Shown here in pieces: positions 4,753-34,942 of a stretch of 64,000 bases of DNA. The stretch lies in contig CAXTYC010000023.1 in assembly GCA_964248365.1 (NCBI GenBank), positions 1-64,000 of the forward strand. The letters are read 5' to 3'. The notes under the pieces are model-generated. The model did not search any database and was not told the origin of the DNA. It was given only the letters and a program-made list of their open reading frames with translations. Position numbers and translations under genes: made by a program. Positions within the stretch are counted from its first letter, which is position 1, and each line of letters starts with the position of its first letter. The stretch comes from an uncultured Chroococcidiopsis sp. (GTDB taxonomy: Bacteria > Cyanobacteriota > Cyanobacteriia > Cyanobacteriales > Chroococcidiopsidaceae).

Positions 4753-4772
4753 GAATGGCTTGCCTCGCTGCC

Positions 4773-11839: not shown

Positions 11840-11890
11840 GTTTATAATTTCAAAAAATTAAGTTTGACAACTTACATATTCTTTACATCA

Positions 11891-11923
11891 AATCCCTGAC
11901 TCCCAGTAGCTAGGGACTTTTTT
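11891..11923 (+). terminator. Putative intrinsic terminator
   Basis: TCCCT..AGGGA stem followed by a T6 run, about 50 bp after the stop. Confidence 0.5.
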
Positions 11924-12178
11924 GTGTCGAATTTTTCTAAATTAGTTTAAAGATATTGTGAACCGATTGTGAATTTCCCTGCTAAGCATGGCGACATTGA
12001 TTTTTTATTGCTTTAATTTATTTAGCACATTCTCAAAATAAAGTATATTTGTTGATTCCTTAGTATTTTAATTTACACTTTCTCACCAAACAGCAATTTA
12101 ATTTTTAAAATTCTTTATTAAATGTATCTATGGTACTAATTATTTCCCAATAAGTCAATAGACATAACTAAATCTACT

Positions 12179-13444: not shown

Positions 13445-13574
13445 AATAAGTACTTCAAAACAATAAAATTACTGAAGATTCTCCTAGCAAAATTAATTGA
13501 TATGTTGATATCTAATAAGTAATATTATCAAAAGTTCCTGATTTGTATTTGAGTAAGTTAAAGGATATTTTCAA

Positions 13575-14861: not shown

Positions 14862-15055
14862 TTAAATTCCTCACAAAGCCTAGAAAGTTTAGTTAAATAT
14901 ATTTCCAAAAGATAAGAAATAAAATAACACGCTCTTTTTGAAAAATAATTATCTGTATTGATTTGATGAAATGTCAAATTTTGTAGCTTAAAAACCAAAA
15001 ACAGTACGTATAAATTATTATAATTTTACTTCAGGACTATAGTCCTGTTTAAACT

Positions 15056-16234
15056 ATGACTAGCACAGCTTTAGAAGTATCTAAAAAAAAGACTCACACT
15101 GATATCCGCATTGCTTGGCTACTGCCATCAGCATTTTTTTACTGGCAACCTGCCATCAGCAAGTTAACGCAGATGTTTCCGCAGACAACTGTGTTTACGG
15201 GACATTGGCAAGGGTTCGCCCCTGGCTTTGAAGACTCATTCTCGGTAGAAGTTCTAGAAAGAAAGGTTATACAACTTACTCGTACATCGACAGGTTATGG
15301 CAATAGCTTCACTTACTTACCTTTGAATATTGTTAGCCGATTACTTCGGTTTAAACCTCATATAATTTTTACCAGTTCTTTCGGAGTCTGGACTATCCTT
15401 GCACTGCTGTTAAAGCCATTAGCAAAATGGCAAGTTGTAATTGCTTACGAAGGTAGCTCACCAAGTGTAGACTATCGAGGTTCTGCACCGCGTTTAGCAT
15501 TGCGACGGGCAATGGTAAAAGCTGCGGATGCCTTAATTACTAACAGTCGAGGGGGAAAAGCTTATTTAATAGATATCCTCAAGGCTAAAGAGAGTAAGGT
15601 TTTTCATCAACCTTATGAAGTTCCGGCTACAACAGCTTTGATGGGATACACCCAAAAAGATGAGCGGGGCAATATCGACCAATTACAAAAACCAGTTTTT
15701 CTATTTGTAGGTGGTATCGTCCCCAGAAAAGGTCTGCATCTATTGTTAGAAGCTTGCGTTGTTCTTCAGAAACAAGGATATCGCAACTATACATTACTAG
15801 TCGTCGGTGACGGAGCGCAGCGAAAAGAACTTGAAGCCTTTAGTCAAAAACATCAGCTAGCAGAATGCGTGAAATGGTCAGGCAGAGTAGATTATGGCAG
15901 CCTGGGTACTTATTTTCGCGCCAGCGATGTTTTTGTCCTTCCCACACTAGAAGACACTTGGGGAGTGGTTGTACTCGAAGCAATGGCTTTGGGCAAACCT
16001 GTTCTGTGTTCTAAATGGGCAGGAGCTTCTGAAATGGTAATTGAAGGGGAAAATGGATACCTTTTTGAGCCGCATCAGCCAGAGGAACTGGCAGAAGTGA
16101 TGCGCCGTTTTATCGAGCAGCCAAATCTCAGTATCTCAATGGGCTACAAGTCGCAACAGTTGATGACACAACATACACCAGAGGTAGCAGCCCAGTTCCT
16201 TGCTAACGTTACATCTTTTGTCGTGAGAAATTAA
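15056..16234 (+). CDS. Glycosyltransferase family 4
   Basis: FVGGIVPRKG and EDTWGVVVLEAMALG. Confidence 0.92.
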   Translation: MTSTALEVSKKKTHTDIRIAWLLPSAFFYWQPAISKLTQMFPQTTVFTGHWQGFAPGFEDSFSVEVLERKVIQLTRTSTGYGNSFTYLPLNIVSRLLRFKPHIIFTSSFGVWTILALLLKPLAKWQVVIAYEGSSPSVDYRGSAPRLALRRAMVKAADALITNSRGGKAYLIDILKAKESKVFHQPYEVPATTALMGYTQKDERGNIDQLQKPVFLFVGGIVPRKGLHLLLEACVVLQKQGYRNYTLLVVGDGAQRKELEAFSQKHQLAECVKWSGRVDYGSLGTYFRASDVFVLPTLEDTWGVVVLEAMALGKPVLCSKWAGASEMVIEGENGYLFEPHQPEELAEVMRRFIEQPNLSISMGYKSQQLMTQHTPEVAAQFLANVTSFVVRN

Positions 16235-16239
16235 GCAAG

Positions 16240-17478
16240 ATGAAAAGTATAAAAGTTTTGATCTCAGCTTATGCCTGTAGACCAAACCAAGGCTCTGAGC
16301 CAGGAGTAGGCTGGAATGTAACTAGAGAGTTGGTCAAAAACCATCAAGTATGGGTAATTACTAGAGAAGATAATCGTCCGTCTATAGAAGCTGAGCTAGC
16401 CAAAAATCCAGTTCCTGGGTTGCAAGTTGTCTACTATGACTTGCCCAAATGGGCACGTTGGTGGTATCGAGGACAGCAGTGGGGAGTACAATTTCACTAC
16501 TATCTCTGGCAGATTGGAATTTACTTCTTAGTCCGCAAGCTTCACCGCGAGGTTGGCTTTGATCTAATACATCATGTAACCTACGTAAAATACTGGTCGC
16601 CGAGTTTTCTTTCACTTCTGCCTGTTCCTTTCATCTGGGGACCTGTCGGCGGTGGAGAATCTGCACCAAAAGCTTTCTGGCGAGATTTTAGCTGGCGGGG
16701 AAGAGCTTACGAAACCGTGCGAGATGTGGCTCGCTGGATTGGTGAAAAAGATCCATTCGTGCGTATGACTGTCGAACACAGTACCTTAACTGGGTCAACA
16801 ACGGAAGATACAGCAAAGCGATTGCACAAAATTGGTGCTACAAATGTACAAATAATTTCCGAAACAGCTTTAGCCAGCGAAGAAATAGCACGATTAGCAC
16901 ACCATACACTGCCCCAAGCTTCGCCAGTCAAATTTATTAGCATGGGTAGGCTGCTGCACTGGAAAGGCTTTCACTTAGGGATACGTGCCTTCGCCGAGGC
17001 AGATTTACCTGAAGATGCTGAGTATTGGCTGCTTGGGGAGGGACCTGAAAGGCAACGGCTTCAGGCTTTGGCTGAGAAATTGGGTATTGCCCACCGTGTC
17101 AAATTCTGGAACAGACTGCCAAGGGAGGAAACCTTGCAGAAGCTGAGTCAATGTGTAGCGCTGGTACACCCCAGCTTGCATGACTCTGGTGGCTGGGTGT
17201 GCTTGGAAGCAATGGCTACAGGTCGCCCTGTGCTTTGCTTGGATCTGGGTGGTCCTGCTGTCCAGGTAACATCAGAAACTGGCTTTAAGGTGGCAGCACA
17301 TACACCAGAACAAGCAGTGCGCGACTTAGCCGCGTCAATGACTCGATTAGCTCAAGATTCCCAGCTAAGAGTAAAGATGGGGCAAGCAGGTCAAAAGCGG
17401 GTTAGTGATGCATACAGCTGGGAAGCTAAGGGTCAGTCCCTGACTCGACTTTACGAAGAAATTCTTGCTCTGCAATAG
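16240..17478 (+). CDS. Glycosyltransferase family 4
   Basis: SAYACRPNQGSEPGVGW, GRLLHWKG and HDSGGWVCLEAMATG. Confidence 0.92.
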   Translation: MKSIKVLISAYACRPNQGSEPGVGWNVTRELVKNHQVWVITREDNRPSIEAELAKNPVPGLQVVYYDLPKWARWWYRGQQWGVQFHYYLWQIGIYFLVRKLHREVGFDLIHHVTYVKYWSPSFLSLLPVPFIWGPVGGGESAPKAFWRDFSWRGRAYETVRDVARWIGEKDPFVRMTVEHSTLTGSTTEDTAKRLHKIGATNVQIISETALASEEIARLAHHTLPQASPVKFISMGRLLHWKGFHLGIRAFAEADLPEDAEYWLLGEGPERQRLQALAEKLGIAHRVKFWNRLPREETLQKLSQCVALVHPSLHDSGGWVCLEAMATGRPVLCLDLGGPAVQVTSETGFKVAAHTPEQAVRDLAASMTRLAQDSQLRVKMGQAGQKRVSDAYSWEAKGQSLTRLYEEILALQ

Positions 17479-17564
17479 ATACTTAGACTAAACCTACCCC
17501 AGTTCTGTTTCGGTTAATTAAATTCAGTGTTCTCACCTCACCTAAAAGAAGTATCTCTTTCCCT

Positions 17565-18503
17565 ATGACTTCACCTTTAGTCAGTATTATCATCACCAAC
17601 TACAACTACGGATGCTACTTAGGCAAGGCTATAGATAGCGCGTTAAACCAAACTTATCCTCATACAGAGGTCATAGTAGTAGATGATGGCTCCACCGATA
17701 ACTCTAAGGAAATCATCGCTAGCTACGGAAAGCAGGTTATCTCAGTGTTCAAGCAGAATGGTGGGCAAGCTTCAGCCTTCAATCAGGGTTTTGCAGTAAG
17801 CAAAGGAGATATTATTTGCTTTCTTGACTCTGATGATATATTCACACCCATAAAAATGGAAGAAGTTGTGAAAACGTTTAAAGAATGCCAAGATATTGGT
17901 TGGTGTTTTCATCATCTTTGTTTAGTAAATATAAGTGAGGCTTTTGCTAAATATAACGATGGATTAAAAAATGAAAAAGTAAATATATTATCTAGAGAAA
18001 ACATTGATTTTAGAGTGAAAATTAAAAAAGCAAAGTTACCTAACTTTGTTCCTGCAACTTCTGGGCTTTGCTTCTCACGATCGCTCTTAAATCAGATTCT
18101 TCCAATGCCTGAAGCTGAAGGTGTATCAATTAGCGACCTTTACATGAAATATATAGCATTAGCTTTAAGTAAAGGCTGTGTTATAAATGGTAATTTAGCA
18201 ATTCAAGGTATACACAGTAATAATGCATATACTTGTAAATCCACAATAGAAAAACAAAAAATATATGCAAAAATAGACATCCTAACAGCCTACTGGATAC
18301 GAGTTAAATTCCCAGAACTTGCTAAGACTACTAATAAGTTATTAGCAAGAGGAATTGGAAGTTATTTTCAAAGTGGAAGTATTGAATTACAATATAAAAA
18401 AACTATCAATAATTATTTATTTACTGTCTCTTTAGCTGAGAGGACAAATATAATTATAAAAGCTTTTTACTACTATTTAAAGTTTTGGGTACGCTTAGCC
18501 TAG
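17565..18503 (+). CDS. Glycosyltransferase family 2
   Basis: VSIIITNYNY, VVDDGSTD and FLDSDD. Confidence 0.92.
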   Translation: MTSPLVSIIITNYNYGCYLGKAIDSALNQTYPHTEVIVVDDGSTDNSKEIIASYGKQVISVFKQNGGQASAFNQGFAVSKGDIICFLDSDDIFTPIKMEEVVKTFKECQDIGWCFHHLCLVNISEAFAKYNDGLKNEKVNILSRENIDFRVKIKKAKLPNFVPATSGLCFSRSLLNQILPMPEAEGVSISDLYMKYIALALSKGCVINGNLAIQGIHSNNAYTCKSTIEKQKIYAKIDILTAYWIRVKFPELAKTTNKLLARGIGSYFQSGSIELQYKKTINNYLFTVSLAERTNIIIKAFYYYLKFWVRLA

Positions 18504-18587
18504 CGGTTAAAGTTGAACACAGCTAGTTCAAGATTTAGCAAAAGTACTTTCCCACTATTGCTTTTAATTTAGGTTAATTTTTAACCC

Positions 18588-19742
18588 ATGCCAAATTGTT
18601 TTACATTTAAGCCTAATGTAGTCTTCTTTAGTGGTCTCCTCCTGCCTCCATCTGAGACATTCATCCGCGCTCAAGGGGAAGGGTTGCAGCAATTCACTCC
18701 CTATTATGTAGGTTCGCGTATAGTAAAGGGTTTATCCTTGCCTTCTGAGCGTACCTTGGTCGTCAATCGAGGTGGATTTTTAGGTGCTGCACAGGAAGGT
18801 TTATTCAAGCTATTAGGATCTGCCCCAAGGTTGTACAAGCAAGTACAGCAGTTAAACCCTGTTTTAATACACGCGCACTTTGGGCTAAATGGATCTCTAG
18901 CCCTCCCTTTGGCACGAATCCTGAAGCTCCCTATGGTGGTGACGTTTCACGGCTCTGATGCTACAAAAAAGGATGAGTATGTACCCTGGTCTTCCATCAG
19001 TCATCAGATATACTTTCGCCGCCGAGAAGCTCTCAAGCGCGAGGCTAGGCTGTTTATTGCCGTATCGGAGTTTATCAAGACAAAGTTGGTTGAGCAGGGC
19101 TTCCCACCAGACAAAATTGTAGTACATCACATCGGCGTAGACACAGAAGTTTTCCAACCCGATCGGGCTGTGCAGCGTGAGCCAGTTGTGCTGTTTGTTG
19201 GGCGGCTAGCTGAGAAGAAAGGCTGCCAATACTTGATTCAGGCTATGGCTCAGGTACAGGCAGAAATACCTGATGTGGAGCTAGTGATCATTGGCGATGG
19301 ACCACTCAGGCTGCAATTAGAAGATTTAGCAGCCTCATCACTAAAACGCTACCAATTTTTGGGACTACAACCACCGCAGGTAGTCAAGAGTTGGATGAAT
19401 CGATCGCTAATGCTTGCTGCTCCAAGTGTCACGGCTTCAACGGGAGATTCTGAGGGTTTGCCTACTGTTGTAGTTGAAGCGCAAGCGATGGGTTTACCTG
19501 TTGTAGGTTCTGTTCATGCTGGTATCCCCCAAGCGGTAGTGCATGGAGAAACAGGTTTCTTGGCGGCTGAGCGGGATTGGACAAGTTTAGCAGAACATAT
19601 TTTGCGACTACTTAAAGACCCGATACTTTGGCAAAGTTTTAGCTGCAATGGGCAGCAGCGAGTAAGGAATTTATTCGACTTGCATAAGCAAAATCAAGCT
19701 TTAGAAGGTATTTATGAAGCTGTTTTGCGCCAAGAAGTTTGA
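18588..19742 (+). CDS. Glycosyltransferase family 4 (WcaL/AmsK-like)
   Basis: SETFI, HAHFG, TFHGSD, GRLAEKKG and GDSEGLPTVVVEAQAMG. Confidence 0.92.
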   Translation: MPNCFTFKPNVVFFSGLLLPPSETFIRAQGEGLQQFTPYYVGSRIVKGLSLPSERTLVVNRGGFLGAAQEGLFKLLGSAPRLYKQVQQLNPVLIHAHFGLNGSLALPLARILKLPMVVTFHGSDATKKDEYVPWSSISHQIYFRRREALKREARLFIAVSEFIKTKLVEQGFPPDKIVVHHIGVDTEVFQPDRAVQREPVVLFVGRLAEKKGCQYLIQAMAQVQAEIPDVELVIIGDGPLRLQLEDLAASSLKRYQFLGLQPPQVVKSWMNRSLMLAAPSVTASTGDSEGLPTVVVEAQAMGLPVVGSVHAGIPQAVVHGETGFLAAERDWTSLAEHILRLLKDPILWQSFSCNGQQRVRNLFDLHKQNQALEGIYEAVLRQEV

Positions 19743-19804: not shown

Positions 19805-22800
19805 GTGCAGAAATCTCAAGAGCAACAGCAAGCGATCGCAACCACTTTCATACAGGAACCACTTGCAGCATCTAGCGTTACAGATCAGCAGATGGTGCAA
19901 GCGGCTATACTTGCCGATCCTTCAATTGATGAGTGTGTTGTACTAAATCGAGCAAAGGAACCCACTAGAGAGCTTGTTGCTTACGTAGTCTCTAGGGGAA
20001 AGTTCTCTCCAGAGCAGATCCAATCTCACTTGCAAGCTAGTCTGCCTTCAGATCTTTTAGCGATCGCCTATGTACCTGTGTCTAAACTGCCCCTTACTCC
20101 TACAGGACAAGTGGATGAGCAAGCTTTGATTGCTCTAGAGGTGGTCGATTCTGACTTGGTGCAAAGATGGGAAACTCAACTGCAATCCCTGCCAGAAATT
20201 GAGCAAGCAGCCCTCGTAGTTCAAGAGTATATAGAAACTTCTCCCCCGCTACATCTGTCAGATTTGCTGCCCGATTGGAAGTCCACCCCAAGCACTAGTA
20301 CTGCAACCACAATTACAACTGCAAGCTCTTTTGATGCTATTGAAGAAGCAACCGAATCCAAGGCACTAGCCATCAGCTACGGCGGATCTCTGCCTGAAGA
20401 ACCTAATGCTCCCACCACTCTACCAGAAGTTCTGCAAAGAGCAGCTCGTCAAATTCAGGGAGATAGCATTGTCTACCTCCAGCCAGACGGCACAGAAATC
20501 TTTCAATCTTATGGGGATTTAGTGGAGGAGGCAGAGCGAATTCTAGCTGGACTGAGAAAGCTAGGGTTGAAACCTCAAGACAAAGTAATTTTACAACTGG
20601 AACTCAACCAAGACATTATCCCAGCGTTCTGGGGTTGTATTTTAGGAGGCTTTATTCCCGTAATTATGGGAGTAGCACCGACTTACAGTTCATCCAATAA
20701 TGCAGTAGACAAGCTGTGTAATGTTTGGCAGTTATTAGATCAGCCTTTAATATTAACCACCCAAGCACTCCAAAAATCAGTACAATCTCTAACTCAATGG
20801 CTACCCGCTGAAGATTTTCAAGTAAGCTCAATTGAAGCATTAAGAAAAAACACTGCTGATAAATCATATCACCCTTGTAAACCAAATGATCCGGCATTTT
20901 TCAACCTGACTTCTGGCAGTACCGGAATGCCAAAATGTATCAGTCTGACTCACTGGAATCTAATATCTCGCGCTATAGGAACTAATATCCTCTCTCACCA
21001 CGACTGTGAAGATGTAATTCTAAATTGGCTGCCTTTCGATCATATTGGTAGTATTTCAGACTGGCATATTCGCTGTGTTTACTTAGGCTGTAAACTTATT
21101 TATACAAATAAAGAATATATTCTTGGTCACCCATTAAACTGGTTAGATTTAATTGATAAATACCGCATTACTCATAGCTGGGCATCTAACTTTGCCTATG
21201 CCTTGATTTATGATGCCCTCAAACAAGAACCTGAACACAAATGGGATCTATCCTGCGTCAAATCCTTACTCACCGCTGGAGAAGCTGTTTCTTCCACTGC
21301 TGTGAAGGATTTTATTGAAAGTCTTGCTGTTCATGGTTTCAAAAAAACAGCCATTCGTCCAGCTTTTGGCATGGCAGAGATGGGATCTGGTATTACTTAC
21401 TATCAGCCAACAGAAGAAAATCCTCTACTTTTTCATACTGTTGACAAATCTTCTTTAAAAGGCTCCATTAAAAGAGTAAGTGCAGAGCATCCAAATTGCA
21501 CAACTTTTACAGATTTAGGTCCAGTGATTCCTGGGGTATCGATTCGGATTGTAGACAAGGAAAACTCACTGTTATCTGAGGATACAATTGGTTGTCTACA
21601 AGTAAAGGGCGATGCTGTATTTGCTGGCTACTACAAAAACCCAGAAGTCAATAAAGAAGTATTTGTAGAGGATGGCTGGTTTAATACCGGAGATTTAGGA
21701 TTTATTTCCGATGGTCATCTGGTTGTTACAGGTAGGGCTAAAGAAACCATTATTATTAATGGAGCCAATTATTACAACCATGAAATTGAAGCGGTAGTAG
21801 AAGAAATTGAAAGAGTTGATGTTTCTTATACTGCTGCCTGTGCTGTGCGGGATGCTAAGGGTACTACCGATAAATTAGCAATCTTTTTCAGTGCTTGCGG
21901 TGTTGATGAAGAGCATCTAATTGAATTGCTAAAGCAAATCCGGCAAACAGTTGTTGGCAAAGTGGGGGTAAATCCTGATTACTTAATTCCTGTTGAAAAG
22001 GAGGTTATTCCCAAAACAGCAATTGGTAAAATTCAGCGATCGCAACTAAGCAAACTTTTTGAAGCGGGTGAATTTGACCATATTCTCAAACGCTTAGATA
22101 TTCTGCTCAAAAACGCTAATACACTGCCAGACTGGTTCTATCGCAAAAGCTGGCGACCGAAAGAAGTTGTATCTTTAAATATTCAACCTCTGACGGGTCA
22201 AACTCTGGTGTTCCTTGACTCATTAGGAATGGGTGAGTTGATCGGTGCAGAACTAAGCCGTCAGTACCAGCCATGTGTCAGCGTCGAGGTGGGGTCAGAT
22301 TTTGTTCAGTTGAGTAGCGATCGCTATCAAATCAATCCTCAAAACCCTGACCACTATCGGCAACTACTTGAGTCTGTTTCAGAATGCACTTTACAAATTG
22401 GTCAAATTCTGCATTTATGGAATTATGACAATTATGCTGGCGAAATTTCAAGTCCAGAGGAACTAGAGCAGGCGCAGGAAAGAGGAATCTACAGTTTGCT
22501 GTTCTTGGTGCAGGCGCTGGCTAAAGTTCAGAGTTCTGAGCATCCAGTTCGCTTGTTAGTTGCAGCTAGTCACACCCAGCCTACCTCGGCATCTGACAAA
22601 GTTGCGGCTCAAAAAGCGCCGATGTTGGGTTTGATTAAAGCAGTGTCTCAGGAATTATCTTGGCTGGACTGTCGCCATGTGGATTTATCTCTAGACACGG
22701 TAGAAATCAATGCTGAGCAAATACTGCGAGAGTTACGAGTTTTGCAGCGATCGCCAGAAGTAGCTTACCGCCAAAATCAGCGTTTGGTTCCCTGCTTGGA

Positions 22801-25051
22801 GAAAGTTGACTGGAGTCAGGAGCCAGAGCAACAACTGCCTTTTAAGCAAGGTGGAATGTATCTGCTGAGCGGTGGTTTAGGTGGTATTGGTGTTGAGATT
22901 GCTAAGTATCTGTTGCAAAATTACAATGCTCGGTTACTGTTGGTAGGTAGAACTGCGTTACCAGAAAGAAACACATGGGATGCGGCTTTAAAGGAAAAAA
23001 ATGCTGTGCGAGAGCGGATCGAGGCTTACCTATCTCTAGAACAACTGGGAGGAGAGATTGCATATCAGGCTGTTGATATTTGCGATCGCATTCAATTGCA
23101 ACAGGTAGTTGATCGAGCTAAGTCGCTTTGGCAATGTGAACTAGATGGAGTAATTCATCTAGCAGGAACCGCACCAGAACGCTTGTTAGTTGACGAAACT
23201 CGTGACAGTTTGGCAACAACCCTGCGTCCCAAGGTTTTGGGTACTTGGGCGTTGCATCAATTGATTAAAGACCAGCCAAACAGCGTTTTTATCAGCTTCT
23301 GTTCGTTGGCGAGTTTCTTTGGCGGCGCGATGATTGGTGCTTATGCTGCTGCTAATAGTTTTCTAGACTGCTTTACCCACTATCAGCGATATCATCGTTC
23401 ATTGCAGAGCTATTGCTTTGCTTGGGGGATGTGGGAAGCGATCGGTATGAGCCGGAATTCTCAAGCAAAGGATTTACTTCGTGCCAAAGGTTATCAAGCT
23501 GTGACGCTAAAGCAGGGGATGCATTCACTGCTGATAGGTTTGCACCACGATCAAGGGCAACTACTGGTAGGTTTGGATGGCAGTAACCGCAATATCCGAC
23601 GGTATATAGAACCGCAGTTGTGTCGCCGTGTTCAGACACTATCTGCTTATTTCACTGCTAACACCGATTTATTGCTCTCAGGTAGGTTAGAAGCATTGTT
23701 AGTGAGCGATCGCTTCGGCACACCAAGTAAATGCACCTTTCGGCAGATCCAGCAAATGCCGCTAACAGATACAGGTGAAATCGACCGCACACAGCTAGCC
23801 GCAATTGGTCGTGCGGGAGCTGCCGATCAGGTGAAGCCGACAACAGAACTAGAATGCCAACTAGCTAGCATCTGGCAGCAGGTATTGGGGGTTTCCCAAG
23901 TAGGCATCCATGACAACTTCTTTGAGTTAGGTGGGAGTTCACTACAAGCCGCGCGTTTATTTGCTGAAATTGAAAAAACCTTTGGCAAAAATCTGCCCTT
24001 GGCTACCCTCTTTGAAGCTCCAACAGTCGCGCAGCTTGTCACTCTTATCAGCACACAAGAAGAGTCAGTATTGTGGTCTTCGCTGGTTCCGATTCAAACT
24101 GGGGGTTCTAAGCCACCTTTGTTTTGTATTCATGGAGCTGGTGGCAACATTCTCATGTACCGCCAACTAATACCTTACTTAGATTCAGAGCAACCAATTT
24201 ATGGAATACAGCCAAAGGGACTAGATGGACATGAGACACCCCTTAACCGGATTTCAGAAATGGCGAGTGTTTATGTCAATGAAATGCGTGACTTGCAACC
24301 TGAAGGACCCTACTACTTGGCTGGTTTATCTGCTGGTGGCTTAATTGCCTTTGAGATGGCACAAGTCCTTCAAGCTCAGGGTCAACAAGTGGCAATGCTT
24401 GCCTTAATCGATCCTCACGCTCCTGGTTATCCCAGATTATTGCCTGTAGTACCTCGATTATTATCATTGCTACCTTATGCAGCTTACCATTTAGCCAAAA
24501 GAAGCCCATCTCGTATAGCTAAGCTGTTCCAATCTAGACTATCGCAAGCTCGTTCACAATCACAGCAAGCAGTCAGTCAAAGCTATGCAACAAGTGAAAA
24601 TCTTCAACAGAACGAGGGATTAGAGGTATCGATCAATAGCAATAGAAACTTACCTCGAAAAATTAATTCTTTGCGCGATCGATTGGAATATTTCAGCCTC
24701 TGGCTTTTGAAATTTACTCCCTGGGCATTTCTTGTGCCGAGGTTTTACTTAGAGGAGGCGAATTCTTTACCTAACTCTCTTCAGAAGATTCAAAAAGCCA
24801 ATGTTGAGGCAATGCTTTCTTACAATGCCCAAGCCTATCAAGGTCGGGCAATCCTGTTTCGCGCTAGCGAACAACCACCCGGATGTTACCCCGATCCCCA
24901 GTTGGGCTGGAGTAATTTAGTGGCTGGAGGACTTGAGGTTTACCAAATCCCTGGCTATCACAGTGAATCTTTGCTGTATGAAGAACGAAGTGTTCGAGTT
25001 CTTGGCAAGCAGTTGAAGACTTGCTTAGATCGAGCGATCACAAATAAGTAG
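19805..25051 (+). CDS. Stand-alone NRPS-like enzyme: pseudo-Asub, keto-acid-type adenylation domain, ketoreductase, carrier protein, thioesterase
   Basis: RBS AGGAGG before the GTG start. A motifs TSGSTGMPK, WLPFDHIG, AFGMAE, TGDLG, GRAKE, PKTAIGK. KR GGLGGIG and YAAAN; carrier DNFFELGGSSL; TE GLSAG and PGYH. No C or KS domain. Confidence 0.92.
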   Translation: MQKSQEQQQAIATTFIQEPLAASSVTDQQMVQAAILADPSIDECVVLNRAKEPTRELVAYVVSRGKFSPEQIQSHLQASLPSDLLAIAYVPVSKLPLTPTGQVDEQALIALEVVDSDLVQRWETQLQSLPEIEQAALVVQEYIETSPPLHLSDLLPDWKSTPSTSTATTITTASSFDAIEEATESKALAISYGGSLPEEPNAPTTLPEVLQRAARQIQGDSIVYLQPDGTEIFQSYGDLVEEAERILAGLRKLGLKPQDKVILQLELNQDIIPAFWGCILGGFIPVIMGVAPTYSSSNNAVDKLCNVWQLLDQPLILTTQALQKSVQSLTQWLPAEDFQVSSIEALRKNTADKSYHPCKPNDPAFFNLTSGSTGMPKCISLTHWNLISRAIGTNILSHHDCEDVILNWLPFDHIGSISDWHIRCVYLGCKLIYTNKEYILGHPLNWLDLIDKYRITHSWASNFAYALIYDALKQEPEHKWDLSCVKSLLTAGEAVSSTAVKDFIESLAVHGFKKTAIRPAFGMAEMGSGITYYQPTEENPLLFHTVDKSSLKGSIKRVSAEHPNCTTFTDLGPVIPGVSIRIVDKENSLLSEDTIGCLQVKGDAVFAGYYKNPEVNKEVFVEDGWFNTGDLGFISDGHLVVTGRAKETIIINGANYYNHEIEAVVEEIERVDVSYTAACAVRDAKGTTDKLAIFFSACGVDEEHLIELLKQIRQTVVGKVGVNPDYLIPVEKEVIPKTAIGKIQRSQLSKLFEAGEFDHILKRLDILLKNANTLPDWFYRKSWRPKEVVSLNIQPLTGQTLVFLDSLGMGELIGAELSRQYQPCVSVEVGSDFVQLSSDRYQINPQNPDHYRQLLESVSECTLQIGQILHLWNYDNYAGEISSPEELEQAQERGIYSLLFLVQALAKVQSSEHPVRLLVAASHTQPTSASDKVAAQKAPMLGLIKAVSQELSWLDCRHVDLSLDTVEINAEQILRELRVLQRSPEVAYRQNQRLVPCLEKVDWSQEPEQQLPFKQGGMYLLSGGLGGIGVEIAKYLLQNYNARLLLVGRTALPERNTWDAALKEKNAVRERIEAYLSLEQLGGEIAYQAVDICDRIQLQQVVDRAKSLWQCELDGVIHLAGTAPERLLVDETRDSLATTLRPKVLGTWALHQLIKDQPNSVFISFCSLASFFGGAMIGAYAAANSFLDCFTHYQRYHRSLQSYCFAWGMWEAIGMSRNSQAKDLLRAKGYQAVTLKQGMHSLLIGLHHDQGQLLVGLDGSNRNIRRYIEPQLCRRVQTLSAYFTANTDLLLSGRLEALLVSDRFGTPSKCTFRQIQQMPLTDTGEIDRTQLAAIGRAGAADQVKPTTELECQLASIWQQVLGVSQVGIHDNFFELGGSSLQAARLFAEIEKTFGKNLPLATLFEAPTVAQLVTLISTQEESVLWSSLVPIQTGGSKPPLFCIHGAGGNILMYRQLIPYLDSEQPIYGIQPKGLDGHETPLNRISEMASVYVNEMRDLQPEGPYYLAGLSAGGLIAFEMAQVLQAQGQQVAMLALIDPHAPGYPRLLPVVPRLLSLLPYAAYHLAKRSPSRIAKLFQSRLSQARSQSQQAVSQSYATSENLQQNEGLEVSINSNRNLPRKINSLRDRLEYFSLWLLKFTPWAFLVPRFYLEEANSLPNSLQKIQKANVEAMLSYNAQAYQGRAILFRASEQPPGCYPDPQLGWSNLVAGGLEVYQIPGYHSESLLYEERSVRVLGKQLKTCLDRAITNK

Positions 25052-25073
25052 CACAGGTATTTAAGGGAAGCAA

Positions 25074-25100
25074 AGGGGAGTTAGTAAATTCTAATTCCCC
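25074..25100 (+). other. Intergenic hairpin between the NRPS-like gene and tyrA
   Basis: GGGGAGTTAG-TAAATT-CTAATTCCCC stem-loop with no T-run. Confidence 0.5.
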
Positions 25101-25127
25101 TCGCTCCTCGCTCATGCCTATTTTCAA

Positions 25128-26267
25128 GTGAAGTCTATTTTCGGACTTAATCTAACAATGCAACAAGCAAAGCTTCAACAAATTGACCAAGACTTGATTA
25201 GGCTGCTAAGGGAAAGAATAGCAGTCTTGGCAGAATCAGGAATTCCTCCTTTAGAGCAGCAACTGTCAGACTGCTCATCCTACCTTGCTCAGACAGGCGT
25301 GCCAGAATCTCTATGGCAAAATATTGTCACAGGTTGTGTTGCTGCACTCAAGAGCGCATCCTTGTCTCACAATCAGATTGAGCCGCGCAACATTACTGCG
25401 ATCGGCGGAGGCGGTATGATGGGGCGCTTCTTTACACAGCGGCTGCAAGCAGCTGGACATAATGTTAATGTTCTCGAATACAATGACTGGGATAATGCAG
25501 AGAAATTACTATCCCAGGCAGATTTAGTATTAGTCTGCGTTCCCCTCAAAAGTACATTGGCTGTAATTCAAAAGGCAGCTAAATACCTTCGTCCAACCAC
25601 TGCACTAGTTGATATTGCCAGTATCAAAACTCCCTTCGTGCAAGCTATGCTAGAGCAGCATAAAGGACCTGTATTGGGTTTACATCCCATGTTCGGTCCA
25701 GGGGTCAAATCCTTCTTGTCACAAAAAGTTGTAGTTTGCCCAGGTCGTGAAAATGAGGCGTTCCAATGGTTTCTAGACTTTATTAAAAATGATGGCGGCA
25801 AGCTGATTACCTGTACGCCCCAAGAACACGATCGCATGATGATAGCTATCCAAGCAATCCGGCATTTCTGTACGTTTAGTCTTGGTGTTTTCTTGGCAGA
25901 AGAAGAAATTGATATAGCCCGTAGCCTAGAGTTTGCTAGCCCGATTTATCGCCTTGAAAGTAACATAGTTAGTCGCCTGTTTGCCCAGGATGGGTCTTTA
26001 TACATAGATATCATACTAGCTTCCGAGGAACGCACTGGGGCAATCGGTAGGCTGGCGCAGACTTATAACCGTTTGGCGAAATTGGTGGCACAAAAAGATC
26101 GCTCCGCCCTGATGCGCGAGTTTGTAAATGTCGGCAATGCTTTTAAACAAGAGTCGGATCGCGCTCTTGAAGAAAGTAATTATGTGATCAACGCCATCAG
26201 TACACTTTTAGCGGCAAGCGAGGTCAAAGCGAATTCAACGCCAGCAACACTTGTCAGCAACACTTAA
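25128..26267 (+). CDS. tyrA: Chorismate mutase-like/prephenate dehydrogenase (T-protein-type TyrA)
   Basis: N-terminal AroQ-like IDQDLIRLLRER, Rossmann IGGGGMMG, DIASIK, GLHPMFGP and EHDRMM. The start may be ATG 25158. Confidence 0.88.
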   Translation: MKSIFGLNLTMQQAKLQQIDQDLIRLLRERIAVLAESGIPPLEQQLSDCSSYLAQTGVPESLWQNIVTGCVAALKSASLSHNQIEPRNITAIGGGGMMGRFFTQRLQAAGHNVNVLEYNDWDNAEKLLSQADLVLVCVPLKSTLAVIQKAAKYLRPTTALVDIASIKTPFVQAMLEQHKGPVLGLHPMFGPGVKSFLSQKVVVCPGRENEAFQWFLDFIKNDGGKLITCTPQEHDRMMIAIQAIRHFCTFSLGVFLAEEEIDIARSLEFASPIYRLESNIVSRLFAQDGSLYIDIILASEERTGAIGRLAQTYNRLAKLVAQKDRSALMREFVNVGNAFKQESDRALEESNYVINAISTLLAASEVKANSTPATLVSNT

Positions 26268-26289: not shown

Positions 26290-27753
26290 ATGAACCTACG
26301 ACAAAAGGCTGCTAAAGGTGTAGCTTGGTCTGCGATCGAAAATTGGGGTAATCAGGCAATCTATTTTGTCCTATTTCTTGTGCTTGCCCGCCTGTTACCA
26401 CCAGAAGCCTTCGGGCTGGTTTCCTTGGCTGGTATTTTGATCAGTTTTATGATGGTCTTTGCTGATCAAGGAATTAGTGATGCGCTCATACAACGCCAAG
26501 AACTGGAACCAGAACACTTAGATACTGCTTTCTGGACTAACGTTGGCGTTAGTGCTTTGCTAACTATATTTAGCATTGCTGCTGCCCAACCCGTGTCTAA
26601 CTTATTCCATCAGCCGCAGTTGATGCCAATTATATGCTGGTTATCCCTAAGCTTTTTGAGTAGCGGCTTGAGTAGTGTGCAGCAGTCACTTTTGCGTCGC
26701 CAATTTGCCTTCAGAGCTTTAGCAGTGCGATCGCTCTTAGCGTTATCTGTCGGAGGTATCGTCGGTGTAAGTATGGCTTGTATGGGCTGGGGTGTCTGGA
26801 GTCTAGTTGGTCAGCAGTTGGTCGGTCGGTTAGTTACAGTTCTAGCTCTATGGTGGGTTAGTGACTGGCGACCTGGTTTTAGGATTTCTGCCAAACATTT
26901 TAAGGAGTTGTTCTCCTTCGGGATAAAAATGCTCGCAGGTAGTATACTCGCTTTTTTTAGTATCCGCTCTGATGATTTTTTAATCGGATACTTCCTCGGT
27001 CCTGTGGCACTTGGCTACTACACAGTTGCCTACAGGCTGCTGGTAGCTATGACACAGATGATAAGTGCTACTACACGCCAAGTCGCACTACCGATATTTT
27101 CCAGGCTACAGCAACAGACCGAGCAGCTAAGGCAAGCATTTCTCAGTGCCACACAGTTCTTGAGTTTGTTTGTTTTTCCAGCCGCTTTAGGTCTAGTGGT
27201 ACTAGCTCCCGAAGTGGTGCGGACTTTGTTCGGTGAGCAATGGACACCAAGCGTTCCGGTGATGCAGATTCTTGCTCTGAGTGTCATGACACAGATAGTC
27301 GGTTCTCTGGGTGGAATTATCTTGGTAGCAGTCGGCAAGCCTGATTGGGGTTTAAAAATGATTTTGCTCAACACTGTGGTTAACGTCATCGGTTTTGCGA
27401 TCGCAGTTCGATGGGGCATTGTGGCTGTGGCAGCATCATTTGTAATTCGTGATTATCTACTTCAACCTGTTTTGTTTTGCCTCGTCTATAAGCTTACAGG
27501 CATCAAGGTTTTCACTTATCTTCGCCAATTTGCCGTCCCACTTGTTGGTTCGCTAATCATGATATTTTTTATCTTGGGAGCAAAATTCTTCCTGGGTAAC
27601 TTGCTAAACTCGCAGGCATTATTAGCAACTTGTGTGACGCTTGGAGCGTCGATATACACAGCAACAATACTGTTAATTGCACCAAAAATATTCTGGCAAG
27701 TAGTTAATTTTGCTGGCTTATCATTAGGAATTTCTAAGTTGAAAAAAACTTAA
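26290..27753 (+). CDS. wzx: Wzx/WzxC-type MOP flippase
   Basis: KAAKGVAWS, LARLLPPEAFG, DTAFWTN and LGYYTVAYRL; multiple TM helices. Confidence 0.92.
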   Translation: MNLRQKAAKGVAWSAIENWGNQAIYFVLFLVLARLLPPEAFGLVSLAGILISFMMVFADQGISDALIQRQELEPEHLDTAFWTNVGVSALLTIFSIAAAQPVSNLFHQPQLMPIICWLSLSFLSSGLSSVQQSLLRRQFAFRALAVRSLLALSVGGIVGVSMACMGWGVWSLVGQQLVGRLVTVLALWWVSDWRPGFRISAKHFKELFSFGIKMLAGSILAFFSIRSDDFLIGYFLGPVALGYYTVAYRLLVAMTQMISATTRQVALPIFSRLQQQTEQLRQAFLSATQFLSLFVFPAALGLVVLAPEVVRTLFGEQWTPSVPVMQILALSVMTQIVGSLGGIILVAVGKPDWGLKMILLNTVVNVIGFAIAVRWGIVAVAASFVIRDYLLQPVLFCLVYKLTGIKVFTYLRQFAVPLVGSLIMIFFILGAKFFLGNLLNSQALLATCVTLGASIYTATILLIAPKIFWQVVNFAGLSLGISKLKKT

Positions 27754-27900: not shown

Positions 27901-29064
27901 ATGCGTGTTTTAAGTATTCATAACCGCTATCAAATTCGAGGTGGAGAAGACGAGTCTAGGGAAGCAGAGGAAAAACTTTTACGGGAAATGGGTAACATCG
28001 TTGATGTATATGAAGAAAACAACGATCGCTTAGCAACTATCAACTCTGTAGAAATGGCTCTGAGGACAGTCTGGTCTAAAGAGGCTTATCAAACAGTAAA
28101 ACAGCGTCTAAAAAAGCAGCCCCACGATATAGTTCACGTTCAAAATTTTTTTCCTCTAATTTCTCCCTCAGTTTACTACGCAGCAAAGTCCCAAGGGGTT
28201 CCTGTAGTTCAGACTTTGCGTAACTATCGTCTTTTGTGTCCTAATGGTTTGTTTTTTCGCAACGGAAGTGTCTGCGAAGATTGTCTGGGCAAGGCAGTTC
28301 CTTTGCCTGGGGTATGGCATGGCTGCTACCGAGAAAGCCGCATGGCAAGTGGAGCTGTTGCAACAATGCTGACTGTGCATCGCACCATGCGAACTTGGAT
28401 AGAGATGGTAGATGTATATATTGCCCTTACCGAGTTCGCGCGTCAGAAGTTTATTCAAAGTGGTTTTCCAGCAGAAAAAATTGTAGTTAAGCCTAACTTC
28501 GTTCACCCCGATCCAAAACCAGGAGAAGGGCGCGGAGGGTATGCCCTCTATGTGGGAAGGCTTTCAGTAGAAAAAGGATTAGATACGCTGCTATCCGCTT
28601 GGGAGCGATTGGGAAAACAGCTACCTCTCAAAATTGTTGGGGATGGACCACTAACAGATCAGGTAGTTGAGGCTAGTAAGAAACTTGGCTGTGTAGAGTG
28701 GTTGGGACGCAAACCGATGCAGGAAGTTTATGACTTGATGGGTGAAGCTACCTTTGTGGTTTTTCCATCAAAGTGGTACGAAACCTTTGGTCGAGTGGCA
28801 GTAGAAGCTTTTGCTAAAGGTACTCCAGTGATTGCTGCTAATATTGGAGCGATCGCTGAATTAATTGAGCATCGTCGCACTGGGCTACACTTTCGTCCAG
28901 GCGATTCGGAAGATTTAGCAACGCAGGTAGAGTGGGCTTTGACGCATCCAAGAGAACTTGCCCAGATGCGCTACCAGGCTAGAACTGAGTTTGAGGCTAA
29001 ATACACCGCCCAGCAAAACTACCGCAGATTGATAGATATTTACCAATTGACCTGTGACAATTAG
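27901..29064 (+). CDS. Glycosyltransferase family 4
   Basis: HNRYQIRGGED, NYRLLCPNG, GRLSVEKG and YETFGRVAVEAFAKG. Confidence 0.92.
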   Translation: MRVLSIHNRYQIRGGEDESREAEEKLLREMGNIVDVYEENNDRLATINSVEMALRTVWSKEAYQTVKQRLKKQPHDIVHVQNFFPLISPSVYYAAKSQGVPVVQTLRNYRLLCPNGLFFRNGSVCEDCLGKAVPLPGVWHGCYRESRMASGAVATMLTVHRTMRTWIEMVDVYIALTEFARQKFIQSGFPAEKIVVKPNFVHPDPKPGEGRGGYALYVGRLSVEKGLDTLLSAWERLGKQLPLKIVGDGPLTDQVVEASKKLGCVEWLGRKPMQEVYDLMGEATFVVFPSKWYETFGRVAVEAFAKGTPVIAANIGAIAELIEHRRTGLHFRPGDSEDLATQVEWALTHPRELAQMRYQARTEFEAKYTAQQNYRRLIDIYQLTCDN

Positions 29065-29088: not shown

Positions 29089-31011
29089 ATGAAAAAAATT
29101 CCTGTACTTACAATCAGTGCTGGCGCGATTTTATCTTCTTGTTTAATCGTAGCCAATATGATGCAGCAGCGAATATCGTTTCAGTCCTTGGCAAGTAATT
29201 CTGCTGTACTAGCAAATAACACAACAACCGTTCCAGCTGCGGAAGTTACAACTGACAATATTATCTTTCCAAAGGATGGGGGTGTAATTAATGTTAAAAA
29301 TGCTCCATACAACGCTAAAGGAGATGGTGTTACTGACGACACGGCGGCAATTGGGCGGGCGCTGGGCGCTTACCCTAATGCAAATAAGATTATTTATTTA
29401 CCAAAAGGTACTTATCTAGTCTCGAACCAATTACAATGGCCCAATGGTAGGGGTGGACAAGAACATAAAAGAACAATCCTACAAGGTCAGAACACAGGAA
29501 AGACAATTATCAAGTTAAAAAATAGCGCCCCTGGCTTTACCAACCCATTTTTGCCTAAAGCAGTGATTTGGACTGGCAATGCTCCTGCTCAGCGGTTTCG
29601 GAATGCTATTCGTAATTTGACAGTAGATACAGGTACTGGTAATTCAGGTGCGATCGCCATCCAGTTCATTGCAAATAACCAAGGCACAATACGTAATGTA
29701 ACCATACGCTCAGGTGATGGTCAAGGTATTGTAGGACTTGATATGTCCTACACCAATGAAATCGGTCCTTTATTAGTTAAAAATCTCAAAGTCTATGGCT
29801 TTAATGTCGGCATCAAGACAGCTAACAAAGTTAATAGCCAAACCTTTGAACATATCACCTTGCAAAACCAAAAAGAATACGGTTTTGCTAACTATGGTCA
29901 AGTAATTAGCATCCGAGACTTGCAGAGTAACAATGTTGTGCCTGCAATTTATAATAAAGACGGAATTCTAACTTTAATTGATTCAAAATTAACTGCAACC
30001 AACAAAGTATCAGGGCAGCCTGCCATTAAAAACGACTCAACGCTTTTCGCCCGTAACATCAAGATATCAGGCTATCAAATCGCCATTGGGAATAAAAGTG
30101 GTCGGCAGAATGTTGCCAGTTCGTCAGTGACGGAATTTGTATCTCATCCAATCTCTAGCGTTTTTCCCACACCATCCAAATCGTTGAATCTGCCGATAGA
30201 GGAAACACCAGATGTATCATGGGATGCCTTAAGTAATTGGGAAAGCCCAACTCATTTTGGTGCAGTTCCTAATGACAATAGAGATGACAGTGCGGCAATT
30301 CAGGCTGCGATCGACTCTGGCAAAACAACCGTGTACTTTCCTAATGGTTCGTATATAGTTAATCATACTATTTATATCAGAAATAAAGTCAAAAGAATTA
30401 TTGGACTAGAGGCTGGTATTGTTGGTAAGGGCGTTTTTCGTTTTGTAGAAGGTAGTGCGCCTGTTGTAGTTATAGAACGTCTTGACGGAATTGGAAGTGG
30501 AATTATCCATGCCACTTCTAGAACACTAGTTCTCAGCAGTATGAGCCTGGCTCCCAGCGGTGGTAAAGCCAGCTATTCCAATATTGGAAATGGCAAACTT
30601 TTTATTGAAGATGTGGTAGGAGGACCTTGGAAATTTGAGCGGCAAAAAATTTGGGCGCGGCAGTTCAACGCTGAAAATCAAGGTATACACATATCTAACA
30701 ACGCGGGAAACTTATGGATACTAGGTCTCAAAACTGAAAGAGATGGTATTTTGGTAGATACTAAAGCAGGTGCAAAAACTGAAATAATAGGAGGATTGAT
30801 TTATTCTAATTCTGACCGGAAAACAACACCAATGTTTACAAATGAAAACTCTGCTGTTTCCCTGACTATTGGAGAATGTAATTTTAATCGAAATTTCTAC
30901 TTTAATTTAGTTACTGAAACACGAAATGGTGTGATGAAACAATTAAATAGAGGTGATACACCACAGCGTTGTAATGGTAGTGCCATTCCTTTATACGTTG
31001 GGCATAAATAA
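29089..31011 (+). CDS. Exported beta-helix protein, pectate-lyase-3/GH55-like
   Basis: N-terminal hydrophobic segment. Two repeats of the beta-helix start motif (YNAKGDGVTDDTAAI..IYLPKGTY and FGAVPNDNRDDSAAIQAAI..VYFPNGSY). Confidence 0.85.
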   Translation: MKKIPVLTISAGAILSSCLIVANMMQQRISFQSLASNSAVLANNTTTVPAAEVTTDNIIFPKDGGVINVKNAPYNAKGDGVTDDTAAIGRALGAYPNANKIIYLPKGTYLVSNQLQWPNGRGGQEHKRTILQGQNTGKTIIKLKNSAPGFTNPFLPKAVIWTGNAPAQRFRNAIRNLTVDTGTGNSGAIAIQFIANNQGTIRNVTIRSGDGQGIVGLDMSYTNEIGPLLVKNLKVYGFNVGIKTANKVNSQTFEHITLQNQKEYGFANYGQVISIRDLQSNNVVPAIYNKDGILTLIDSKLTATNKVSGQPAIKNDSTLFARNIKISGYQIAIGNKSGRQNVASSSVTEFVSHPISSVFPTPSKSLNLPIEETPDVSWDALSNWESPTHFGAVPNDNRDDSAAIQAAIDSGKTTVYFPNGSYIVNHTIYIRNKVKRIIGLEAGIVGKGVFRFVEGSAPVVVIERLDGIGSGIIHATSRTLVLSSMSLAPSGGKASYSNIGNGKLFIEDVVGGPWKFERQKIWARQFNAENQGIHISNNAGNLWILGLKTERDGILVDTKAGAKTEIIGGLIYSNSDRKTTPMFTNENSAVSLTIGECNFNRNFYFNLVTETRNGVMKQLNRGDTPQRCNGSAIPLYVGHK

Positions 31012-34474: not shown

Positions 34475-34942
34475 ATGTTGAAATTAATAGGCTTGAGTGC
34501 AACTTTATTTACTAACACTTTTGTGTTTTTGTCTGGCGCTCAATTGGAGGCGATCGCACGAGAGCCTGATTACCCTTGCTACATGATTGCTCCCTCCGGC
34601 CAAACTGTAGATTTATCTAACTCCCTGTGTAGTTTCGGACATAATATTGTTGATACTAGTGCTAATATTGACGACTTATTCTTTGCTGATTATAAGCAAG
34701 CTCTAATCAAAAAGTATCCAAACTTAAATAATGTTTTGCTGGAGCAACAACCTGAAGCGTTTGGGTATGCTCATGCTGTTTGTAATGGTCTGAAGTCTGG
34801 GCTTTCTCCTAATGTAATTCAAAGTTTACAAAACGAGCAAATTGTTAATACCATTTCTGGAAGAAACACGATTGTTGACTTAGAATTGATTAATTTTTTA
34901 GCTCCTAAATACTATTGCCCACAATTCAAGCAAGGTAGGTAA
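34475..34942 (+). CDS. Secreted Cys-containing hypothetical protein, DUF732-like C-terminus
   Basis: Signal-like N-terminus, CYM..GQTVDLSNSLC, YAHAVCNGL and APKYYCP. Confidence 0.6.
   Translation: MLKLIGLSATLFTNTFVFLSGAQLEAIAREPDYPCYMIAPSGQTVDLSNSLCSFGHNIVDTSANIDDLFFADYKQALIKKYPNLNNVLLEQQPEAFGYAHAVCNGLKSGLSPNVIQSLQNEQIVNTISGRNTIVDLELINFLAPKYYCPQFKQGR

Follow-up and report, generated by a model that had tools for sequence, protein, structure and literature searches.

An A-KR-T-TE protein of the keto-acid type, a dedicated TyrA and a tyrosinase as a candidate polysaccharide-decorating cassette in a Chroococcidiopsis genome

In a 64,000-nt stretch (the window) of the 5.58 Mb genome of an uncultured Chroococcidiopsis sp. 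(contig CAXTYC010000023.1, positions 1 to 64,000; other contigs of this genome are cited as C5, C8 and C11), a Wzx-type polysaccharide cluster encodes a 1748-aa protein composed of adenylation (A), ketoreductase (KR), carrier (T) and thioesterase (TE) domains. We propose that this A-KR-T-TE protein, the TyrA encoded after it and a tyrosinase encoded further downstream form a three-gene accessory cassette on an otherwise common polysaccharide. On our best reading, which we put at a probability of roughly 0.55, the TE would acylate the glycan with a 4-hydroxyphenyl-lactyl group (Hpla), and a secreted tyrosinase would then oxidise the phenol outside the cell. An earlier sequence-only reading of this DNA had proposed aromatic acylation of an exopolysaccharide giving a UV-absorbing sheath; its keto-acid A domain, aryl-pyruvate pocket, TyrA and synteny held up, whereas the purpose given to the sheath did not as stated.

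The A-KR-T-TE gene (19805..25051, plus strand; assigned from Pfam, alignment and catalytic residues) lies between a GT4 glycosyltransferase (GT) gene (18588-19742) and tyrA-wzx, all co-oriented. The coordinates and domains first reported for it were confirmed, as were the annotated gaps of 62, 76 and 22 bp around it and tyrA, and family scans likewise found no second nonribosomal peptide synthetase (NRPS) or polyketide synthase (PKS) gene in the window. Pfam places AMP-binding at residues 220-610, KR at 1017-1211, PP-binding at 1352-1415 and the thioesterase from 1437, with neither a condensation (C) nor a ketosynthase domain in the protein; approximate domain limits are 190-765 for the aryl-keto-acid A domain and 775-1260 for the KR. 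The motifs WLPFDHIG and AFGMAE, already singled out in the sequence-only reading, start at residues 408 and 520. The closest solved structure is the A-KR-T module of StsA (PDB 6ULW, E 2e-258), which aligns continuously over residues 118-1417. I414 aligns with StsA I306, the hydrophobic residue that replaces the amino-binding Asp, and G522-M523 with the StsA Gly-Met motif G414-M415, matches that bear out the proposed keto-acid A domain; I306, G414-M415 and a split pseudo-Asub are the keto-acid marks of StsA (excerpts of PMC7923214 and PMC11253843). We assign an N-terminal Asub-like piece (AMP-binding_C at residues 31-101, below the Pfam cut-off) to the split pseudo-Asub of such modules, the halves of which stand at the N-terminus and between KR and T. 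The catalytic residues of the KR (K1143, S1167, Y1180, N1184), the carrier serine (Ser1379) and the TE triad (Ser1509, Asp1536, His1719) are all intact, the TE has a long lid specific to its clade, and the host genome encodes a phosphopantetheinyl transferase of Sfp size.

The substrate pocket was read at ten positions (414, 415, 418, 419, 459, 489, 491, 520, 528, 529) in 59 A domains, mapped by alignment and by what we take to be the GrsA numbering; the first four had been fixed beforehand by the search pattern. The code IGSDWLAASG is found in the window A domain, in all eight other rows of its A-domain clade and in the aer-type starters of Planktothrix, Dolichospermum, Aphanizomenon, Iningainema and five of six Nostoc rows, so that all ten positions of the window pocket, the four preset ones included, agree with AerA-type starters. 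It differs from that of the Bacillus Sts-like modules for aliphatic substrates (IGVMWIGASA or VGVMWMAASA). Identity to the A domains of starters in aer-type clusters is 63-70%, and many of the 75 stretches returned by an A4-motif scan consist of an A-KR-T starter followed by a C-domain NRPS and by genes that we presume to be AerD/E/F-like, from their resemblance and gene order rather than from a family match. AerA takes phenylpyruvate or hydroxyphenylpyruvate and reduces it to an aryl-lactyl group (PMC10143770, in excerpt). Activation of an aryl-pyruvate, predicted to yield a (hydroxy)phenyl-lactyl group, is well supported by the shared pocket, in line with the earlier proposal, and hydroxyphenylpyruvate would be preferred over phenylpyruvate because of the adjacent TyrA.

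This TyrA (25128..26267, plus strand) is a PRK11199-type prephenate dehydrogenase with an N-terminal chorismate-mutase-like piece (NCBIfam, 312 bits against a cut-off of 273, and a tree). Its true start is probably the ATG at 25158, where its homologues start, which would widen the gap to the preceding gene to about 106 bp. It is the third such dehydrogenase of the genome, distinct, as a dedicated enzyme should be, from a 280-aa housekeeping type on C8 and from the copy in the scytonemin cluster on C5 (a cluster named from sequence and gene order). The tree groups the window tyrA as sister to the tyrA genes of scytonemin clusters, the product of which is described as ending its pathway at hydroxyphenylpyruvate (PMC2726228, partial text).

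The third member of the cassette, which the sequence-only reading missed, is a tyrosinase (32960..34303, plus strand; Pfam Tyrosinase, E 1.5e-41) with a His/Met/Cys-rich tail and an N-terminal hydrophobic, signal-like segment, an export signal read from the sequence and not predicted by a tool. Its six copper-binding His (131, 153, 162, 285, 289, 312) are conserved in all 24 tyrosinase rows aligned. Distant lineages carry the tyrosinase gene directly upstream of the A-KR-T-TE gene, and there the enzyme is fused to proteins that reach 2783 aa and have DUF4347, SWM and FG-GAP repeats, mostly with a His/Asp/Met-rich tail. Because these are surface-type proteins, the tyrosinase probably acts outside the cell. 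Seven such tyrosinase rows form a clade (SH-aLRT 99) in which all six copper His are kept, and by its recurrence beside A-KR-T-TE in relatives we assign the tyrosinase to the cassette. In the window it is separated by 581 bp from the probable wzy before it and, given this gap, may have its own promoter; scans for promoters and terminators stayed at chance level (43 against 38.5, and 13 against 17), and Rfam gave no match across the 64 kb. Tandem pairs of tyrosinases of the same subfamily were also seen beside topoisomerase I, away from polysaccharide genes, in five genomes of one family (L280-L284; this and similar handles are our own).

Members of the A-KR-T-TE group were found in 11 genomes (window, L001, L002, L003, L004, L005, L006, L007, L008, L109 and L174), and as the proteins of L003 and L007 are 100% identical and were counted once, they represent 10 distinct lineages. 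Identity to the window protein ranges from 81% (L001) down to 52-57%. A synteny check showed that the tyrA-wzx arrangement with A-KR-T-TE is kept in distant cyanobacteria, as the sequence-only reading would have it. The tyrA gene follows directly, or one gene later, in 8 of the 10 lineages and was not found in the L109 genome; wzx lies downstream in 7 of the 10 (for L005, on the contig that has the remainder of tyrA), the contigs of L004 and L109 stopping earlier and unrelated genes following in L008/G694. A tyrosinase lies on the same contig as the A-KR-T-TE gene in 6 of 10 (window, L002, L003, L005, L006 and G692:C437). It lies on a separate contig beside wecG in G690 and G691, in G690 in the gene order of the window itself, and elsewhere in the genome in G694; no tyrosinase of this subfamily was found in G693. 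Attempts to join contigs gave no overlap for L005/L286, L004/L236 or L001/L235, and the L109/G692:C437 overlap is only 92% identical, marking a sister copy, so that the adjacency of tyrosinase and A domain was read from C437 itself. The whole cassette is present in a cultured strain, Lyngbya confervoides BDU141951 (L002). The A domains of the distant loci form a clade, and so do their tyrosinases. The A-KR cassette is nonetheless rare and patchy: this version was seen in 1 of 401 genomes of a phylum sample (its own genome only) and in 2 of 401 of an order sample (its own genome and one congener), and a scan of metagenomes gave two loci.

This rarity would suit a gene that arrived by chance, or one that supplies starter units in trans to an NRPS encoded elsewhere in the genome, in neither case tied to the polysaccharide, as would the 63-70% identity of the A domain to aeruginosin-type starters and a three-gene NRPS on C11 of the same genome. 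We consider this reading very improbable, since the terminal TE is intact, the same gene neighbours recur at 52-55% identity across several families, and the distant loci fall into one clade by their A domains and into one by their tyrosinases; the conserved synteny largely refutes it.

Twenty of 58 aligned A-KR-T-TE proteins, counted by eye, have a long TE lid with the motifs GPGYPxLLP and WxFxVPRxYL; the alignment scan for relatives had returned mostly unrelated A-KR modules among the matches listed. At E <= 1e-55, a profile built from ten long-lid TEs gave 34 matching places, spread over 29 of 401 genomes (window and L001 standing for two of the places), and neighbourhoods were read for about 10 kb on each side. 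Half of the places (17) score E < 1e-80: polysaccharide clusters contain or border 11 of them, a lone GT4 stands about 8 kb from 5 that share one congeneric cluster type, and the last has none. Of the other, weaker 17, 12 are outside polysaccharide operons and 5 inside. A quick tree was drawn from 61 TE domains, without L007; in it, a clade of 28 rows (SH-aLRT 98) has 18 rows in polysaccharide loci. The loading parts joined to the TEs of this clade vary, comprising A-KR (8 rows), FkbH-type (L178, L245), A-T (L226, L234), an NRPS fused to 4-hydroxyphenylpyruvate dioxygenase (HPPD; L227), multi-module NRPSs (L228, L229, L177) and PKS-NRPSs (L225, L230-L233). That the loader changes while the TE and the glycan genes stay fits a TE that recognises a glycan acceptor.

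Two of these loaders bear closely on that idea, L178 above all. L178:7532-10666 encodes a 1044-aa FkbH-type-T-TE protein between orthologues of the window GTs 12179 (64%), 15056 (62%) and 16240 (69%), with neither tyrA nor tyrosinase in the 18.6 kb around it; its FkbH part was named from a HAD motif and from the name that JGI gives to a relative (P0146), Pfam giving no name, and presumably loads a glyceryl unit, which makes the locus a candidate for glyceryl transfer to a polysaccharide. L227:3121-10848 encodes an HPPD-fused A-T-C-A-T-TE protein beside wecG, an epimerase and a GT4 (a similar fusion is found in P0136), which may be another way for hydroxyphenylpyruvate to reach a TE of this clade. 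In L230-L233, L225 and L258 a PKS-NRPS line ending in C-(A)-T-TE shares one operon with the same GT4 backbone and is followed by a secreted-type protein of 440-470 aa without annotation and then an ABC transporter. All five other congeners with this TE (L220-L224) have a formyltransferase/luciferase-like NRPS and a C-T-TE beside nickel/cobalt and iron uptake genes.

The window TE was also modelled (pLDDT 73.7, with residues 156-195 and 209-222 under 50), and Foldseek gave the Pks13 TE as top match (TM 0.56, 21% identity), other TEs scoring alike. The idea of a membrane-docking lid was dropped, as the hydrophobicity and basicity of the lid are not usefully above those of other TE lids and the ranges overlap; median best 18-residue lid hydrophobicity is 0.52 in the 8 A-KR rows, 0.41 in the 20 other clade rows and 0.36 in the 33 rows outside.

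The glycan genes themselves are far more widespread than the cassette. Orthologues of the 12179 GT4 occur in 61 of 401 genomes (the sample searched with the TE profile), including 12 of the 15 with a strong match to the TE clade. This enrichment, the eight GTs that surround the A-KR-T-TE gene and a GT4-A-T-TE fusion (P0160, with only 32% identity in the TE) are what can be said for a small glycoconjugate or primer, in which a GT of the cluster would glycosylate released Hpla, the product being either a glycoside that is secreted or a glycan that ends in an aglycone. However, 49 of the 61 genomes with the GT4 lack a strong TE match, and no TE, tyrA or tyrosinase lies within 10 kb in any of 8 sampled loci of this kind, which argues that the GTs build a glycan independent of the cassette and were not made for the acid; Wzx and Wzc, moreover, point to a polymer. 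We regard this alternative as improbable, and the 12179 GT4 was likewise rejected as a dedicated partner GT, as it is mostly found without the TE. The distribution fits a cassette that would be an optional decoration of a widespread cyanobacterial polysaccharide.

A separate set of polysaccharide operons (L248:1165-12386, L249, L250, L251) combines an aromatic amino acid ammonia-lyase, an AMP ligase, T-TE, GAF, GDSL and a BD-FAE esterase-like gene, with DAHP synthase also in L248 and L251. Their TE belongs to another clade, and they form a candidate cinnamoyl/coumaroyl-polysaccharide system.

Taken together, these data lead us to a four-step scheme for the acylation that we favour. TyrA would, by strong inference, turn prephenate into 4-hydroxyphenylpyruvate; with similar strength, the A domain is predicted to adenylate this acid, the carrier to hold it and the KR to reduce it to Hpla. 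In the third and weakest step, the TE would act as an acyltransferase, passing Hpla from its serine to a hydroxyl or amine on a sugar, whether in a nucleotide sugar or in the lipid-linked repeat unit, at the cytoplasmic face and ahead of flipping by Wzx. Transfer to the glycan is suggested by the exchange of loaders, by the lack of another acyltransferase in the window (no Acyl_transf_3, sulfotransferase or GDSL gene was found there, nor any MBOAT, other membrane acyltransferase or DltD-like protein among the window proteins scanned) and by the precedent of Pks13, the TE of which acylates trehalose (PMC7261415, from part of the paper). Finally, the exported tyrosinase would hydroxylate and oxidise the tethered phenol to a catechol and o-quinone, leaving the sheath cross-linked, glued or darkened; here the intact tyrosinase sites, the signal-like N-terminus and the surface-type fusions argue for extracellular oxidation, and a tyrosinase outside the cell would make sense of a tethered substrate.

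A simple phenol absorbs only near 275 nm. The UV-absorbing phenolic sheath of the sequence-only reading is weak as stated, the genome already having scytonemin (C5) and mycosporine (52698-56239) genes, and the secreted tyrosinase of the cassette points to oxidation of the phenol instead of UV screening.

A number of observations weigh against glycan acylation by this cassette. The pocket cannot separate phenylpyruvate from hydroxyphenylpyruvate. In L006 (Acaryochloris) the tyrosinase, wzx and sulfotransferases are kept, but no such tyrA was found in the genome and the TE, which has a Cys nucleophile, is not a member of the clade; in G694 the TE does belong to it and a sulfotransferase and tyrA are present, but unrelated genes come next, the downstream polysaccharide genes having been lost. 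The tyrosinase subfamily is present at full length in 8 of 401 genomes, 6 of which carry it without the clade TE and away from polysaccharide genes. Five of the 28 rows of the TE clade have no polysaccharide gene and another five only one GT about 8 kb away, while 7 of the 33 rows outside the clade do lie in polysaccharide loci (for the non-cyanobacterial rows, the scan covered some of the neighbours). The clade was moreover gathered with a profile from ten of its own members and drawn in a quick tree that includes non-independent kin, and neither the lid test nor the fold search discriminated. Lastly, 14 A-KR-T-TE genes that share the A4 motif or the pocket (L023, L047, L105, L115, L117, L118, L120, L125, L128, L139, L145, L158, L165 and L170) lie outside polysaccharide operons, a divergent GT2 and a nucleotidyl transferase being near that of L145; they indicate that the architecture can release its product without a glycan. 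The sequence-only reading had held that homologues mostly outside exopolysaccharide loci would speak against it, an objection that stands by half: these genes do lie outside, yet their TEs all fall outside the 28-row clade.

Related fusions were noted in passing. Same-pocket A domains of L116, L126, L133, L166 and L139 belong to A-T-sulfotransferase-C (L116, by Pfam), A-KR-T-C or A-KR-T-sulfotransferase-TE proteins, several of their genes adjoining a convergent MATE/flippase gene; P0045 fuses A-KR-T-TE with an aromatic amino acid lyase, and P0160, cited above, fuses a GT4 with A-T-TE.

The observations above also feed the most serious competing explanation, that the TE hydrolyses or dimerises Hpla and that the exported product, perhaps sulfated, is polymerised by the tyrosinase into a melanin-like pigment in the sheath, the genes sitting in the polysaccharide operon for co-regulation and not for acylation of sugars. 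The TE swap of L006, the gene arrangement of G694 and the sulfotransferases beside or fused to same-pocket modules are all in its favour. So is L165:3564-10024, a further point against acylation, where a melC1-like gene (named from a twin-arginine leader and its position, with no Pfam match), a tyrosinase and a same-pocket A-KR-T-TE gene share an operon that has no polysaccharide genes, a candidate bacterial pathway to an Asp-melanin-like pigment by analogy; the TE and tyrosinase of L165, however, belong to other clades or subfamilies than those of the window. Free Hpla needs only a dehydrogenase, and a route through ATP and a carrier would be superfluous for it. The same TE clade also serves the non-phenolic FkbH-type loader of L178 among the same GTs, from which no pigment is possible. 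On the other side again, Asp-melanin needs no more than the NRPS-like MelA and, in a separate compartment, the tyrosinase TyrP (PMC5735947, excerpt), and the scytonemin cluster likewise pairs tyrA with a tyrosinase (PMC2726228). On balance we think a soluble precursor unlikely, though less so than the alternatives above; it and glycan acylation are not exclusive, and quinones formed from a soluble product might become bound to the sheath as well.

Comparison with characterised systems places the protein among the true keto-acid A-KR-T modules, where it is predicted to work like AerA, while the system as a whole is none of the cluster types considered. The aeruginosin starter AerA shares its A-KR-T order, keto-acid signature and pocket code (as read in the starters of aer-type clusters), but the window protein ends in a TE, has its own TyrA and sits in a polysaccharide operon, and no downstream C-domain NRPS or AerD/E/F was found in the window. 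StsA, ClyF and CrpD share the A-KR-T order with a split pseudo-Asub, a terminal TE being present in ClyF and CrpD as well (PMC7923214), but these modules act on aliphatic substrates and are preceded by a C domain or partner module, and the Bacillus Sts-like modules have a different pocket code. MelA of Aspergillus terreus is an A-T-TE protein that dimerises an unreduced keto acid, whereas the window protein has an intact KR that would remove the enolisable ketone, and polysaccharide genes surround its pair. The likeness to Asp-melanin lies in a cytoplasmic NRPS-like enzyme joined to a tyrosinase in an oxidising compartment (PMC5735947), the window having a linked tyrosinase with intact copper sites and a signal-like N-terminus. 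The TE of Pks13 likewise is terminal with a Ser-Asp-His triad, and its fold match is generic, but its substrate is fatty and its acceptor a free disaccharide. In D-alanylation of teichoic acid by Dlt, an adenylation domain and a carrier decorate a surface polymer; Dlt, however, uses an MBOAT protein and DltD outside the membrane, neither of which was seen in the window scans, and an amino acid, with no KR, TE or oxidase. The scytonemin cluster has an extra tyrA, a tyrosinase in some strains and a product in the sheath (PMC2726228), but scyA-F and the trp genes are absent from the window and the genome's own cluster is on C5. A defining feature of each of the aeruginosin, Asp-melanin, Dlt and scytonemin systems is thus missing here, and, as the sequence-only reading had supposed, no description of a system of this kind was found in the literature searched, judged from titles and abstract openings. 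It is a conserved and apparently undescribed one.

The surrounding polysaccharide cluster is a plus-strand run of genes at 10553-36319, with a Wzc-type co-polymerase/kinase gene divergent from it (6549..8852, minus strand; wzc precedes the tyrosinase in L002). The run opens with seven GTs identified by Pfam (GT4 10553, GT4 12179, GT61 13575, GT4 15056, GT4 16240, GT2 17565 and GT4 18588; 10553..19742, plus strand). After the A-KR-T-TE gene and tyrA come, on the same strand, the Wzx flippase (26290..27753; Polysacc_synt_3, E 4e-92; after tyrA in relatives too), a GT4 (27901..29064; Pfam), a secreted-type pectate-lyase-fold protein (29089..31011; Pect-lyase_RHGA_epim, E 8e-30; orthologues in related clusters), a polytopic membrane protein that is probably Wzy (31053..32378), the tyrosinase, a small DUF732-like protein (34475..34942; same position in G690) and, last, a WecG/TagA GT (35450..36319), which adjoins the tyrosinase in G690, G691 and G692. 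Intergenic gaps are 5-147 bp between the 15056 GT4 and the probable wzy. Wzx, Wzc and the GTs expected of a Wzx/Wzy-dependent cluster are all present by Pfam and NCBIfam. The candidate Wzy has no match in either, is tied weakly to Wzy_C by ESM Atlas (12% of the members of one cluster) and is kept at 43-74% in related clusters; neither wza nor a WcaJ-type initiator turned up in the window. The host is cyanobacterial, with rbcLXS on C11 and a HIP1 density of 1.0/kb. The sequence-only reading had taken HIP1 sites as a sign of long residence, and seven GCGATCGC do occur in the A-KR-T-TE gene (none in tyrA), but at 1.33/kb their density is ordinary for the genome, which makes this weak evidence.

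Elsewhere in the window, a second, decayed-looking polysaccharide cluster lies at 7-5930 (minus strand), with a split flippase (3913-4668 and 3452-3892), a split GT4 (1789-2817) and an IS630-like element (634-1737). The mycosporine-type cluster at 52698-56239 comprises a DHQ-synthase-like gene, an O-methyltransferase and a 454-aa gene without Pfam match; a GH32/GH43-like gene follows it, and no mysD/E-like gene was seen in the window. An Eco47II-like restriction endonuclease and a convergent C5 cytosine methylase occupy 58748-60501.

More tentatively, and as a single joint claim, the cassette may be one version of a general cyanobacterial route of polysaccharide acylation, in which one TE clade would deliver the acyl groups of exchangeable loaders (hydroxyphenyl-lactyl, glyceryl, HPPD-derived aryl peptides and PKS-NRPS products). 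The Hpla version would give a catechol-cross-linked, tanned or adhesive matrix, cured by a secreted or surface-anchored tyrosinase, with L248-L251 as a convergent cinnamoyl version. Polymer-bound phenols together with an extracellular oxidase are familiar from feruloylated plant wall polysaccharides, the catechol tanning of insect cuticle and mussel glue; these eukaryotic systems use unrelated enzymes and would be an analogy only, if our best reading holds. If the general route is true, it would be a bacterial counterpart of feruloylated plant walls and of insect or mussel tanning.

All parts of the cassette are known singly, while their combination fits no known family tested. If our best reading is true, a bacterium makes a phenol-bearing polysaccharide cured by an extracellular oxidase, a strategy so far linked to plants and animals, and an enzymatic route to catechol-polysaccharide glues would be at hand. 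Many orphan NRPS/PKS genes within the polysaccharide clusters of cyanobacteria would then be explained as lines that decorate a glycan, not as antibiotic clusters. The reading would also give a gene-level handle on the toughness and adhesion of sheaths and on dark sheath pigments of unsettled structure; the chemical class of one such pigment, gloeocapsin, is described as still debated (PMC10359912, excerpt).

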